Made by a program: the position numbers and the translations under genes. Below are positions 32,659 to 40,552 of a stretch of DNA of 64,000 nt, piece after piece (the stretch's first letter is position 1; each line of letters starts with the position of its first letter). The notes under the pieces were generated by a model. It worked only from the letters and a program-made list of their open reading frames with translations. It made no database searches and was not told the origin of the DNA. Source of the stretch: Sediminibacterium goheungense (GTDB lineage: Bacteria > Bacteroidota > Bacteroidia > Chitinophagales > Chitinophagaceae). The stretch spans positions 1,016,050-1,080,049 of the forward strand of contig NZ_SNWP01000010.1 in assembly GCF_004361915.1 (NCBI RefSeq), written 5' to 3'.

Positions 32659-34104
32659 ATGAGCAGGTTAAAAATAACAGCAAAAGAATTAAGGGCTATC
32701 GGATTTCCAGAGAGTCCGGTAATTCCTGTGGCCATGTCGGTAGTAGATAAGTTTTATAGATTCAGTAAAAAAGACGAGGTGATCGAACTATTAAAAAAAG
32801 TATTGACACAACCTGCCGACTATAAAAATGATCCCATGCTTGAGAGTATTGCTTTAAAACTGCTTCCGAAAGAAGTGGCGAATGCAACGGGCATAGCACT
32901 AAAAGAATCAGGAGCAGCCGTAAGTATTTTCGGGCCCAAACATATTGAAGCAGGTGCATTACACCAGATTCATATGGCAGCTAAACTACCCATATCGGTT
33001 AAAGCTGCATTGATGCCCGATGCCCATCATGGCTACGGCCTGCCTATTGGTGGTGTACTGGCAACTAAAAATGCCGTAATACCCTATGGTGTAGGCGTGG
33101 ATATTGGTTGCAGGATGTGTTTATCAGTTTTCGATATGGATCCCGACCTGCTGAAAAGCAAAACATCTTTTTTTGCAAGGGAAATTCATGAAGCTACATT
33201 ATTTGGCAGTGGTGCACAATTTAAAACAGCAGAAGAGCATGAAGTAATGGACAGGAATGAATTCCATTCTACCCCATTACTCAGGTCGCTCCATGGCAAA
33301 GCATGGAAACAGCTGGGCTCATCGGGTAGTGGTAATCACTTTGTAGAATTTGGCGTAGTTGAAATTCAGGAGAAAGATGAAATACTGGGTATTGAAACCG
33401 GAAAATATATCGGTCTCTTATCGCACTCCGGTTCGAGAGGGCTGGGTGCCAATATTGCCAACTACTATACCAAGCTGGCCATTGAAAAAAGAAAACTGCC
33501 CAACGATGCAAAAAACCTGGCATGGCTCGATTTACAGGAAGCCGAAGGACAGGAATACTGGATGGCGATGAACCTTGCAGGTGACTATGCCAGTGCCTGC
33601 CACCACATTATTCACAGGAAAATTGCCAGACAACTGGGGAGAACACCTATGAAGATGGTAGAGAACCACCACAATTTTGCCTGGAAAGAAATATTGGATG
33701 GCGAAGAAGTTATCGTTCATAGAAAAGGGGCAACACCGGCCGGTAAAAATGTATTGGGTATTATTCCTGGCAGTATGTCGGCCAATGGTTTTATTGTAAA
33801 AGGCAGGGGTATGGCTGATGCTATTCATTCTGCGGCACATGGTGCAGGTAGAAAAATGAGCAGGTCTGCCGCCATCAGTGCCATTACCCATAAAGCTATG
33901 AGGGATGCACTCGATAAAGCAGGCGTAACTTTATTAGGTGGCGGACTTGATGAAGCGCCGTTTGCTTATAAAGATATTCATACGGTAATGTCTGCTCAGA
34001 CTGAACTGGTGGATATTGTAGGCAGTTTTACACCTAAAATTGTAAAAATGTGTGGCGATGGTCCAAAGCAGTTGAGAAAAAGAAACCCTTCAGATGGCGA
34101 ATAA
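32659..34104 (+). CDS. rtcB: RNA 3'-phosphate/5'-OH ligase RtcB (long archaeal/eukaryal-type form)
   Basis: Metal/GMP-site motifs MPDAHHGYG, VDIGCRM, GSGNHF, HRKGAT and AAHGAGR. 481 aa. Confidence 0.8.
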   Translation: MSRLKITAKELRAIGFPESPVIPVAMSVVDKFYRFSKKDEVIELLKKVLTQPADYKNDPMLESIALKLLPKEVANATGIALKESGAAVSIFGPKHIEAGALHQIHMAAKLPISVKAALMPDAHHGYGLPIGGVLATKNAVIPYGVGVDIGCRMCLSVFDMDPDLLKSKTSFFAREIHEATLFGSGAQFKTAEEHEVMDRNEFHSTPLLRSLHGKAWKQLGSSGSGNHFVEFGVVEIQEKDEILGIETGKYIGLLSHSGSRGLGANIANYYTKLAIEKRKLPNDAKNLAWLDLQEAEGQEYWMAMNLAGDYASACHHIIHRKIARQLGRTPMKMVENHHNFAWKEILDGEEVIVHRKGATPAGKNVLGIIPGSMSANGFIVKGRGMADAIHSAAHGAGRKMSRSAAISAITHKAMRDALDKAGVTLLGGGLDEAPFAYKDIHTVMSAQTELVDIVGSFTPKIVKMCGDGPKQLRKRNPSDGE

Positions 34105-37743: not shown

Positions 37744-38031
37744 ACAAATTAAACTATTACCAGCTTAAGAAATATTTGTACAGGAACGTGAGGGTTTGGG
37801 GGATGGGGGGTTGCTATAGCTTTAATAAGTTTAGGTACTGACTATTTACTGAGCGGTTATAGACAGAGATACTAGAGGCACAAGAGAACCATTAGAGAGT
37901 GCTAGTGAAAACATAGTTTTTTGTAATGAATTCACTTTACAGACTAGTGTATAGTATTGGTAATGTCTAATCTGCCTAGATGCAACTATAGGAAAGTTTA
38001 TGAATTTTTAAAATCAATTCTCATTATATTA

Positions 38032-38409
38032 CTAAGATTGTGGGTAATAAACAAAAGATTGCGGCGGAAGTAAATTATAGTCTGCCCTTAAACATTTTGG
38101 TTGTCTATACTTTTTTGCCTTTTTAATTTGTATAGCAAACCCCTCGGTTCGGTTCTCAAAGTATTGGTAAAAATAATCCTCTGTTATTCCTGATAAATCT
38201 TGCGTCATTTCCCAAAGACTATCAATATCTTTATTAATAATCCTTTCAATGTCAAACTCCCCAATTACCTGCTGAACTGGTGAAGAAGCATATACAATTA
38301 CAGTTTTTATTTTAGTGTTTTTAAAAATAGCTTTTCGAAACTCGAACTTCTTAGTTCCGTCAAATATTTTAAATGCGAATTCAGGTTTTATTGATAATAC
38401 TACTTTCAT
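38032..38409 (-). CDS. ASCH (PUA-like) domain protein
   Basis: 125 aa beginning SIKPEFAFKIFDGTKKFEFRK, the ASCH consensus. 4-nt overlap with the upstream gene. AT-rich. Confidence 0.75.
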   Translation of the reverse strand: MKVVLSIKPEFAFKIFDGTKKFEFRKAIFKNTKIKTVIVYASSPVQQVIGEFDIERIINKDIDSLWEMTQDLSGITEDYFYQYFENRTEGFAIQIKKAKKYRQPKCLRADYNLLPPQSFVYYPQS

Positions 38410-39905
38410 TTCCCGATTGAATAATTTGCAATTTTAAGAAAATTTTCGCGGCTTATTTCCCTAAATCCTCTTGGCATATCTAATATGTCTTGGATAACTC
38501 CATTTTCATTAAGCCACTTCAAGTTAGGTCTTTTTCTAAACGAGTAAGCATAAATAAAGTTTACGATAAAGGGTTTGTCTGTTTTTCTATAATTCCAATG
38601 CTCTTTTAATTGCTGGTCTGTGAAAACACTTCTTTTTCTACAAGACTGAATGAAAACGGTTTCGTTTGGAATATTATCAATCACGGATTCTACAATTCCA
38701 TAAGTTGTAACTACCCCTTGATAAATACCACCTGTTCGATAGAATACGACAATATCCCCCGGTTTTAAGTCCCGCACAAAAGAACGGGAAATATACACCT
38801 TACTTAGTGCATTTCGGTGGGGTTCATTTTCTGTAAAATTTATTGGGGATTCAGTTCTCAGAATTGAGTCTGGAAATAATTCAGTATGGTACTGGGGATA
38901 AATGGGAACTATATAAATTTTGTTTTGGGATGAAATAAACGGAAATGTTTTTTTAGGTTGCAAGGAATTTATTTCTTGTGCTCTATCAAAATTTTTCACA
39001 TAAACATTTTCATCGCCAGTTGCAGTGGTTTTGATTCCAAAGTAGTAGAAACCCCATTCTTCAAGTAAAGCAATTAATCTAATTTGTTCTGGTCTTTTAT
39101 TGAAGATAGTTACATATATTTCTGATACATTATATTGAAGTGCGTTGTCAAATATGATTTTTAAAAATCGTTCTCCAATTTTGAATCCATTACTTGCTAC
39201 TTTTAGTGTCCCTATTTTTAAACGTTTTTTTCGTTTAAAGTTTGGCTGAATATCTGAATAGTTTTCTGTCTCTTCTTCAACTTTTATGTATAAAAATGCC
39301 GAAAGAGCATTATTGCTATAACAGACGTATGCTATTTCATCTGCTTTTTTATTAAACCATCTGTCGAACCCGTCATAATCTTCCCTAAAACTGTCAAAAA
39401 AAGTGTCTTGCACATTAACTTGTCCAAAATCGACTTTCTTAACTGCCAGAACTTTATAATCAACCAAACTAGGGTTTTCTGCAGTTACCTTTTCAAGGAA
39501 CTGGTCAATTTTGAAAACTTTTTCTGATATCCCAAGCAGTAAAGCTTTTGTGTGAATTTTTTTATCTTCTGATATTAAAATGTCAACTCTTTCAGAAAAC
39601 ACTTCATTAAGTATTCTTGTGTCATTTATATCGTTTGCTACAGTGTCAATTTGCTTACTAACTTGTTCGATAATTTGGCTTGTTGGAGCAAGGTTTCTAA
39701 TTAAGTTATAGCTAGCGATTTTTATTGCCATTGTGGCGACCGTTTGTGGATCTTTATTACGATTAAGTTCTTCAATTGTTACGGGATGTATGAATTTTTC
39801 ATACTTAAGTTTGTCAAGCCAATTAAACAATATGCCAATATCCTGATTGATGATTTTGGAAGCTTCTCTATGGATAATTATGTTGGTGTCAAGTAAAACT
39901 TTCAT
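38406..39905 (-). CDS. Multidomain protein: N-terminal PIN nuclease-like, central GNAT acetyltransferase-like, C-terminal PUA-like (EVE/ASCH-type) domain
   Basis: 499 aa. PIN start MKVLLDTNIIIHRE with later acidic motifs (IEELNRN, DINDTR, ILISEDKKIH). GNAT motif-A-like LKIGTLKVASNGFKIGERFLKII…SEIYVTIF…LLEEWGFYYFG. PUA-like segment KPGDIVVFYRTGGIYQGVVTTYGIVESV. Gene is markedly AT-rich. Confidence 0.55.
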   Translation of the reverse strand: MKVLLDTNIIIHREASKIINQDIGILFNWLDKLKYEKFIHPVTIEELNRNKDPQTVATMAIKIASYNLIRNLAPTSQIIEQVSKQIDTVANDINDTRILNEVFSERVDILISEDKKIHTKALLLGISEKVFKIDQFLEKVTAENPSLVDYKVLAVKKVDFGQVNVQDTFFDSFREDYDGFDRWFNKKADEIAYVCYSNNALSAFLYIKVEEETENYSDIQPNFKRKKRLKIGTLKVASNGFKIGERFLKIIFDNALQYNVSEIYVTIFNKRPEQIRLIALLEEWGFYYFGIKTTATGDENVYVKNFDRAQEINSLQPKKTFPFISSQNKIYIVPIYPQYHTELFPDSILRTESPINFTENEPHRNALSKVYISRSFVRDLKPGDIVVFYRTGGIYQGVVTTYGIVESVIDNIPNETVFIQSCRKRSVFTDQQLKEHWNYRKTDKPFIVNFIYAYSFRKRPNLKWLNENGVIQDILDMPRGFREISRENFLKIANYSIGK

Positions 39906-40279
39906 TCAGTTAGTTTAATGATGCAAGGTGTCAATAACATAATTCACGACTACTAAAGTTTCGGAACAACGCGTTAATAACCTTCACCAATCAACCCAAA
40001 AAAATGGTGCATAGGAGAAAGTATTTATTGAATTTCTTGAAACAACAGTTTACACAAAACTGTCACTGGGGGGAATAGTAAGATAGAAAGAAAAAATGAA
40101 ATATGCAAATTTATGCTAACATATTTAAGTGGGGGTTCCAGGGCTGGTTTAATAAATGATAAGTACTTTTCTTGAAGTTCCTTGCTATGTGTGGCGTAAT
40201 GGCTGGTACTCAAGCATCAAATTCTTCCAGGAAATCTTCAGGTATGTACACCGCTAAGACAGGGATGCTCTTTAGTTGC

Positions 40280-40510
40280 CTATGTTTTATCCTTGTAATA
40301 CAAATCTTTCAAATCGGCACGCATATTTACCTTTGCGGGAGTTTCCAGCTTATTTACCATGTCAATAATATTCTTCCTCTTTGCGGGCCTGGCAACAGTT
40401 TTAAAATAATGCTCCACCAGTTCAGAAATACTGGTTCCCCTCTTCAGGGCATAAGTCTTCATGTTTTTAAGCAGGGCATTATCTATAATAAGGTTTAATC
40501 TCGTTTTCAT
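40280..40510 (-). CDS. DUF6364-like ribbon-helix-helix antitoxin-family small protein
   Basis: ~76 aa: MKTRLNLIIDNALLKNMKTYALKRGTSISELVEHYFK… RHH-antitoxin pattern. No adjacent cognate toxin gene. Confidence 0.5.
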   Translation of the reverse strand: MKTRLNLIIDNALLKNMKTYALKRGTSISELVEHYFKTVARPAKRKNIIDMVNKLETPAKVNMRADLKDLYYKDKT

Positions 40511-40552
40511 GGAACAAAGATGTGCATATTTTATAATTATGCGCATATCTTG

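Follow-up and report, generated by a model that had tools for sequence, protein, structure and literature searches.

The window analysed here, a stretch of 64,000 nucleotides from Sediminibacterium goheungense (contig NZ_SNWP01000010.1, positions 1,016,050 to 1,080,049), contains two overlapping genes on its minus strand that we refer to as A and B. Gene A (positions 38406 to 39905) is an open reading frame (ORF) for a protein of 499 amino acids with PIN, GNAT and EVE-type domains. It corresponds by hidden Markov model (HMM) match to PDC-M11A of the PADLOC database, and its core is homologous to a phage protein annotated as 'GevT'. Gene B (38032 to 38409) encodes a stand-alone ASCH protein of 125 amino acids, which likewise matches the HMM of PADLOC PDC-M11B and is a homolog of the phage protein 'GevA' and of ZmASCH. 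The stop codon of A overlaps the start codon of B by four nucleotides (ATGA, 38406 to 38409, minus strand), the junction reading ...GGG AAA TGA in the frame of A and ATG AAA GTA in that of B. A first-pass annotation had placed the two ORFs at exactly these coordinates and had proposed their translational coupling through the ATGA overlap, and both statements held when the sequence was read again.

The pair is set apart by its base composition. In sliding windows, the G+C content (GC) was 0.30-0.34 over positions of about 37750 to 40250, as compared to 0.40-0.50 on either side, and the lowest-GC stretch of 2.1 kb in the entire 64 kb lies at the A-B pair. When judged against the remaining 52 ORFs of the window that are 100 amino acids or longer (mean GC 0.423, standard deviation 0.024, minimum 0.379), gene A had a GC of 0.324 (z -4.1) and a GC at third codon positions (GC3) of 0.265 (z -3.2), and the corresponding values for gene B were 0.315 (z -4.5) and 0.256 (z -3.4). 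The AT-richness that had first been estimated by eye is therefore real.

Pfam gave sub-threshold matches on protein A to PIN_3/PIN_4 and EVE and no match to a GNAT family, and searches of PDB chains with the single sequence and with the family profile returned nothing significant. Since these searches of the PDB were empty, a fold search was required to assign the domains. With an AlphaFold2 (AF2) model of A (predicted local distance difference test score, pLDDT, 81.8), three domains were delimited, all on the minus strand: a VapC-like PIN domain at about residues 1-130 (39516 to 39905) with the acidic tetrad D6/E46/D95/D114, a GNAT-fold domain with a degenerate motif A at about residues 150-310 (38976 to 39458), and a C-terminal PUA-like domain of the EVE/ASCH type at about residues 325-499 (38409 to 38933). 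Foldseek matches of the GNAT fold included a GNAT described as a 'bacterial toxin' (7byy). Residues 320-499, when modelled separately (pLDDT 77.9), were clearly PUA-like, with scores of about 11.4 against EVE-family proteins, 10.7 against the 5-methylcytosine (5mC) reader THYN1, 9-10 against YTH domains and 7.8 against YqfB. The same model also matched VcaM4I and McrB (McrB-N), two modification-dependent nucleases, in their reader domains, and it resembled that of PD-T4-3 too. Among 100 diverse relatives of A, Pfam recognised PIN_3 in 20, EVE in 19, ASCH in 14 and Acetyltransf_1 in 9. The initial assignment of the PIN and PUA-like domains and of an ASCH partner is thus upheld by both fold-level and homology evidence.

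These domains are found together in a family that has already been catalogued. Protein A matched the PADLOC PDC-M11A HMM (PDLC04422) with an E-value of 8e-219, its residues 1-495 covering profile positions 1-491 of 501, and protein B, encoded next to A on the same strand, matched the PDC-M11B HMM (PDLC04425) with an E-value of 9e-52. Both proteins thus match PDC-M11 over their full lengths and in the same arrangement, with no structural difference. PDC-M11 belongs to a set of 145 untested 'phage defence candidates', compiled from genes that lie inside BREX, DISARM or systems of type I restriction-modification (RM), and the supplement to that study lists it solely as cassette CAS_00069 (Payne et al., bioRxiv 10.1101/2024.01.29.577857). 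The one distinction is that PDC-M11 was defined by guilt-by-embedding, whereas no known defence system surrounds the copy in the window. Earlier, Matelska et al. (2017) described PIN_15/PIN_17 proteins fused to GNAT-like and PUA-like domains, in operons that hold a second PUA/ASCH protein and optionally an ATPase. Bell, Wolf and Koonin (2020) described (PIN)-GNAT-EVE + ASCH operons with or without an AAA_17 gene, placing the form with PIN in the vicinity of type I RM and CRISPR systems and the form without PIN in prophages, and they stated that none of the components had been characterised. The N-terminal PIN-like, central GNAT-like and C-terminal EVE/PUA-like domains and the ASCH partner of these operons are all present in the window, which shares with them the domain order, the sporadic and mobile spread and the degenerate motif A. 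In contrast, the window copy has no AAA_17 gene, no helix-turn-helix (HTH) fusion on its ASCH protein and no RM or CRISPR neighbours.

The family also extends to phages. PIN-less homologs were found by tblastn in the records of lambdoid Escherichia coli phages, and GenBank record PV340567.1 (2025), in which the homologs follow cI directly, gives them the names 'GevT toxin' and 'GevA antitoxin'. Residues 160-492 of A share 38% identity with GevT of phage PhiR47_2, and for B the identity with GevA is 47% (E 2e-44). At an identity of at least 99%, the Gev pair is present in 275 of 5,426 complete E. coli genomes (5%), including O157:H7 prophages, where PGAP labels the two proteins 'hypothetical protein' and 'ASCH domain-containing protein'. 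The first-pass annotation had stated that the pair resembled no named toxin-antitoxin (TA) or defence system. This does not hold, as PDC-M11 matches it end to end, the operon has been published at least three times and phages carry GevT/GevA. Its two functional proposals, a toxin or defence module and an acetyl-type modification system, coincide with published predictions. What had been observed in the sequence is therefore confirmed as a whole and the interpretation in part, and the pair is a typical representative of a family known so far from computational description, not a new kind of system.

Relatives of A numbered more than 5,177 in a 90%-clustered database, with about 1,900 cluster representatives at 50% identity. 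The conserved core of the family comprises residues 150-495, that is, the GNAT and PUA-like parts, and variant forms either lack the PIN domain (about 350 amino acids) or carry an additional ASCH domain at the N- or C-terminus, as natural ASCH-A and A-ASCH fusions. The linkage of A and B was examined in 80 related loci from species genomes. In 77 of these, a B gene lies directly downstream of A on the same strand, and in the remaining 3 the contig ends first. The overlap between the two genes is mostly -4 or -23 nucleotides. When the B family was compared with the A family by hhalign, no sequence-level paralogy between B and the C-terminal domain of A was detected. The match that was obtained, at a probability of 95%, falls on the additional ASCH part of a natural fusion protein, and the ASCH domain fused to the C-terminus of A is accordingly of the B type.

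Two further genes accompany the pair in part of the family. A gene for an AAA_17 P-loop protein is translationally coupled upstream of A in about 26-28 of the 80 loci (L002-L081). Its product of about 175 amino acids has the Walker A motif GGIHGVGKST, an AAA_17 match in Pfam (E 7e-17) and weak similarities to nucleoside and nucleotide kinases, and it corresponds to the optional ATPase of the literature; examples immediately 5' of A are found in L048 (4325-4936) and L065 (9468-10004). No such gene is present beside the pair in the window, where the upstream neighbour is a DUF6364 gene, but because the AAA_17 gene is optional its absence does not exclude family membership. In 8-9 loci, including L009, L011, L012, L017, L019, L020 and L022, a third gene for a protein of about 310-320 amino acids lies between A and B, and a gap of about 1 kb separates A and B also in L045 and L053. 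The intervening protein has a C-terminal hydrophobic helix (...NNWKTI...IELFSNWLYD...) and no match in Pfam, PADLOC or PHROG; it may represent a membrane effector or a sensor variant of the system. The window copy is without this third gene.

The strictest invariants of the A family are located in the GNAT core. Residues F170, Y177, W183, E210, Y264, F286 and P322 were present in all of 100 relatives, and K230, T266, E299 and K369 in 99 of them. The GNAT part had initially been called a convincing acetyltransferase core. The fold is indeed that of a GNAT, but this wording was too strong, as the motif A for acetyl-CoA is degenerate: its canonical pyrophosphate loop, Q/R-x-x-G-x-G/A, is replaced by N239-G-F-K-I-G244, in which the last glycine alone is kept. 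Judging from their conservation, an alternative active site might be built from E210, K230, Y264, T266 and E299.

The loss of motif A bears directly on a different view of protein A, in which the GNAT-like domain would be catalytically dead and act as a scaffold or as the sensor of a ligand, the PIN RNase would be the sole effector, and B would inhibit by binding. The EVE and ASCH domains would then sense phage-type modified nucleic acids and thereby free the PIN domain, a logic similar to that of type IV restriction but directed against RNA. This would agree with the opinion of Matelska et al. (2017) that acetyltransferase activity is probably absent, with the intact PIN tetrad of the window protein and with the likeness of the C-terminal domain of A to the readers of VcaM4I, McrB-N and PD-T4-3, and the natural A-B fusions are compatible with inhibition by binding. 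However, it is the GNAT core rather than the PIN domain that is most conserved, and a PIN domain is missing from many relatives, among them those that bear the GevT toxin annotation. Moreover, the PIN acidic tetrad is retained by about 78% of the PIN-bearing members, about 22% having lost acidic residues, and the invariant polar pocket of B, described below, looks catalytic. The invariance of the GNAT core and the toxin annotation of PIN-less forms weaken this alternative, and we consider it unlikely.

Protein B scored just under the gathering threshold of the Pfam ASCH family, and phmmer aligned it to the solved Zymomonas ASCH protein (5GUS/5GUQ) with an E-value of 2e-11. It contains the GxKxxExR signature. 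Among 79 homologs, which include GevA and ZmASCH, residues S6, K20, E23, R25, Y40 and P116-Q117-S118 show no or almost no variation, and the Ser/Lys/Glu/Arg pocket formed by S6, K20, E23 and R25 is kept in 77-79 of the 79. These four residues correspond to S7, K21, E24 and R26 of EOLA1, a deacetylase of N4-acetylcytidine (ac4C), and the equivalents in YqfB are K21, T24 and R26. B thus has the Lys-(Thr/Glu)-Arg pocket and the conserved Ser/Thr of ASCH amidohydrolases. This pattern looks enzyme-like, and the invariant polar pocket looks like a catalytic one, as far as can be judged from residue conservation. This conservation lends some support to the earlier suggestion that B is a YqfB-like eraser, and to a writer-eraser logic like that of DarTG.

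The distribution of the family indicates that it is highly mobile. In 75 of 78 loci, the A-B pair was poorer in G+C than the sequence on either side, by 0.08 on average, including in hosts with a GC of 60-69%. Among the genes that neighbour the pair in the 80 loci, 440 of 546 were singletons, and the neighbourhoods were mostly unrelated. Copies joined by 57-81% identity carry the labels Bacteroidota, Proteobacteria, Planctomycetota, Verrucomicrobiota, Chloroflexota, Acidobacteriota and archaea, 33 plasmid records contain homologs, and in lambdoid prophages homologs occupy the slot directly after cI. Some labels of metagenome-assembled genomes (MAGs) are doubtful. Locus L010 (QFQQ01000035.1), with an A copy 68% identical to that of the window, is labelled 'MAG: Citrobacter freundii' and has a GC of 42%, and a Chitinophagaceae-like histidine kinase, P0305, bears the same label. 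This bin is probably contaminated or mislabelled, and taxonomic breadth deduced from MAG names should therefore be read cautiously. A copy of the same module is also carried by an archaeal virus, Methanothermobacter virus psiM100 (NC_002628.3, 8233-10078; L088). Its ORFD is a PIN-GNAT-EVE protein 27% identical to A, the overlapping ORF5 is 40% identical to B, and the site is annotated as 'inserted fragment IFa'.

In the window, the pair forms an islet specific to this genome (37917 to 39929), as revealed by blastn comparison of related Sediminibacterium-like contigs (L083-L086) with the window. The four related contigs keep the block of histidine kinase, response regulator and peptidase S15 genes, with kinase orthologs that are 88, 80, 75 and 69% identical, and no A-B pair was found upstream of the kinase in the sequence available. 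The histidine kinase of the window is itself 100% identical to that of S. goheungense, in keeping with an origin from this species or a near relative. One of them, L085, has both flanks of the window site (39930-40119, and 37810 and below) with a different AT-rich gene for a protein of 168 amino acids between them. The presence of other cargo between the same flanks sets the limits of the islet at roughly 37917-39929 and indicates that the site is variable. Clean empty sites were sought in L083 and L084 and rejected: in L083, an 88-residue ORF before the kinase is not an ortholog of the DUF6364 gene and the contig ends there, and the contig of L084 is too short, so that L085 alone gives both flanks. 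A segment of 93 nucleotides downstream of B (37824-37916) is 85% identical to positions 163-254 of L083, where 455 nucleotides of extra sequence separate it from the kinase promoter region; this displacement is further evidence that the site varies. Upstream of A, a conserved non-coding element of 190 nucleotides (39930 to 40119, minus strand) is 79% identical to L085 6097-6283, where it precedes the different cargo gene. A Bacteroidota-type -7 motif (TAAATTTG) stands at its start, and no Rfam family matched it. From its sequence, the element is probably a promoter plus leader, and it may drive whatever cargo has been inserted at this hotspot. Searches for direct or inverted repeats at its flanks, for a tRNA or an integrase, for an intrinsic terminator and for an Rfam family gave nothing that would mark out the islet. 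The compositional outlier status, the AT-richness of the pair in other hosts and the related contigs without the pair, one of them with other cargo at the site, bear out the earlier suggestion of horizontal acquisition, and we conclude that the islet was horizontally acquired at a variable intergenic site.

These data speak against a housekeeping pair of the core genome that acts in RNA modification or turnover, for example in ac4C metabolism of tRNA or rRNA. The presence upstream of mnmE, which encodes a tRNA-modification GTPase, and of RtcB about 4 kb downstream would be in keeping with such a role, as would the action of the ASCH proteins YqfB and EOLA1 in ac4C salvage. However, the pair is a strong compositional outlier, it is absent at this site from the available sequence of the four related contigs although the synteny of histidine kinase, response regulator, S15 and RtcB genes is retained in them, no neighbourhood is conserved across the 80 loci, copies occur on plasmids and phages, and the spread across phyla is patchy. 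By this distribution, a housekeeping role is effectively excluded.

Genes for defence functions are found near the pair in other genomes. The about 290 neighbours recorded in the other loci include methylase and specificity subunits of type I RM systems, type II methylases, DndC, MADS and PDC-S02. This association with RM systems is relevant for the proposal of Iyer et al. (2013), in the form in which Matelska et al. (2017) and Bell et al. (2020) cite it, that such operons carry out nucleic-acid acetylation. According to this idea, the two proteins would not be a TA pair. Instead, the GNAT would acetylate a base of DNA, or of RNA-guided DNA, as a self or regulatory mark, the EVE and ASCH domains would be readers, and the PIN domain would process an RNA substrate or guide. 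A GNAT fold placed between two PUA-like base-reader domains is in line with this proposal, RM systems are likewise based on marks, and DNA binding by ASCH domains is suggested by fusions of the HTH-ASCH and HsdS-ASCH types that Bell et al. (2020) reported. On the other hand, the acetyl-CoA motif is degenerate, the sporadic, highly mobile and moron-like spread of the pair (after cI) together with its TA-like coupling fits addiction or defence better than a stable epigenetic system, and GenBank names the homologs toxin and antitoxin. We therefore regard this proposal as improbable for the pair.

Taken together, the linkage of A and B, their mobility, the defence neighbours, the Gev annotation, the pocket of B and the intact PIN tetrad favour a TA-like reading. 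We propose, with a probability of roughly 0.6, that the pair is a horizontally acquired, self-contained (PIN)-GNAT-EVE + ASCH (PDC-M11) module that most likely functions as a TA-like anti-phage system of the abortive-infection type. Protein A would be the effector, with the conserved GNAT-EVE core as its toxic or active portion. The EVE domain, which is PUA-like, would guide A to a base, possibly a modified one, in RNA or DNA, and the N-terminal VapC-like PIN domain would contribute RNase activity. Protein B, produced by translational coupling, would be the cognate neutraliser and would work jointly with A.

Several observations weigh against this TA-like reading. The pair lies outside any defence island, its neighbours in the window being mnmE, a LytTR two-component system and a peptidase, and neither RM nor CRISPR genes were found beside it. 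In the sampled loci, defence neighbours occur in a minority, and most neighbours are ordinary genes. The toxin and antitoxin labels of the Gev pair are a matter of database annotation, and no experimental study was found in the literature on GevT, GevA, PhiR47, GNAT-EVE or ASCH antitoxins, nor any paper in which the Gev names are used. The degenerate motif A makes acyl-CoA-dependent transfer by the GNAT domain doubtful, in agreement with Matelska et al. (2017), who described the GNAT of these proteins as being without motif A. Furthermore, the catalytic residues E103 and Y115 of RimI align to T266 and L281 of A, although this alignment and the correspondence of motif A drawn from it, with an hhalign probability of 2%, are indicative only. 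As regards B, GxKxxExR is a general signature of the ASCH superfamily, so that its presence is no proof of amidohydrolase activity. ZmASCH, a member of the PDC-M11B family (E 1.6e-27), has been reported to be a Mg-dependent nuclease for single-stranded RNA and a nucleic-acid binder in vitro (Kim et al. 2017), in assays that covered the binding and the cleavage of nucleic acids.

Within the TA-like reading, the sub-mechanism that we prefer is a writer-eraser pair following the logic of DarT-DarG. In the writer step, A would acylate the exocyclic amine of a nucleobase, the N4 of cytosine being the obvious candidate, and in the eraser step the amidohydrolase-type pocket of B would take the mark off. 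As B keeps the Ser/Lys/Glu/Arg pocket of ac4C-deacetylating ASCH enzymes, such a mechanism is plausible but unproven. In its most complete form, as a reversible nucleobase-acylation TA system, the GNAT-EVE part would write an N-acyl mark on RNA or DNA, such as N4-acylcytosine, by means of an atypical acyl-donor site, B would erase it as an enzymatic antitoxin, and the PIN domain would cleave marked or unmarked RNA during infection. This full scheme is put forward tentatively, as the odds are clearly against all of its parts being correct.

The systems with which the pair can be compared resemble it in part. GevT/GevA share with it the gene order, the overlap and the ASCH partner of 125 amino acids. 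Unlike A, GevT has no PIN domain and is encoded in a prophage immunity region, directly after cI. In ZmASCH, Y47 and S128 correspond to Y40 and S118 of B and GxKxxExR is shared, whereas K53 is replaced by Q46 in B; the genomic partner of ZmASCH is not discussed by Kim et al. (2017). In alpha-proteobacteria, the partner protein has an HTH domain. YqfB and EOLA1 resemble B in their ASCH fold and the EOLA1-type pocket. TacAT, AtaRT, KacAT and ItaRT are, like the pair, two-gene, coupled and mobile modules with a GNAT-fold protein. Their toxins, however, are single-domain GNATs of about 170 amino acids that have a canonical acetyl-CoA site and acetylate aminoacyl-tRNA, which is not so for A, and their antitoxins are of the ribbon-helix-helix (RHH)/DUF1778 type and encoded upstream, whereas the partner in the window is an ASCH protein. 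VapC of the VapBC systems has a PIN domain with four acidic residues, as does A, but no gene for a cognate VapB-type antitoxin lies immediately upstream of A. DarT-DarG would be alike by analogy, as a base-modifying toxin and a mark-erasing enzyme in phage defence, although the folds and the chemistry (ADP-ribosylation, a macrodomain) are unrelated to those of the pair.

The family is widespread, being found in many phyla, on plasmids, in archaeal viruses and in 5% of complete E. coli genomes, and its architecture has been catalogued while its mechanism is apparently unpublished. If the writer-eraser mechanism is true, it would represent new nucleic-acid chemistry in phage defence and a bacterial role for the reader and eraser folds of the ASCH/EVE type, which in eukaryotes serve for ac4C, 5mC and N6-methyladenosine (m6A). 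If the nucleobase-acylation scheme is also true, the family would be the first acyl-based writer/reader/eraser immunity module acting on nucleic acids, an acetyl counterpart of DarTG. For the window itself, the value lies mainly in the annotation, as two 'hypothetical' genes can be assigned to a PDC-M11 / (PIN)-GNAT-EVE + ASCH module.

Lastly, some genes in the vicinity of the pair deserve mention. The DUF6364 gene (40280-40546, minus strand), located 375 bp upstream of A, encodes a protein of 88 amino acids (Pfam E 5e-14) with weak similarity to CopG antitoxins, and its GC is host-like. We considered this protein as a VapB-like partner of the PIN domain, but rejected it, as its gene is no recurrent neighbour of A across the 80 loci; probably, this is a small gene without relation to the pair or else an orphan antitoxin. 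At a distance of 4-8 kb from the pair are genes for an RtcB RNA ligase (32659-34104, plus strand), a Band_7 protein and an AAA protein. As this block is syntenic in L085, where the pair is absent, it belongs to the core context of the host and lies outside the module.

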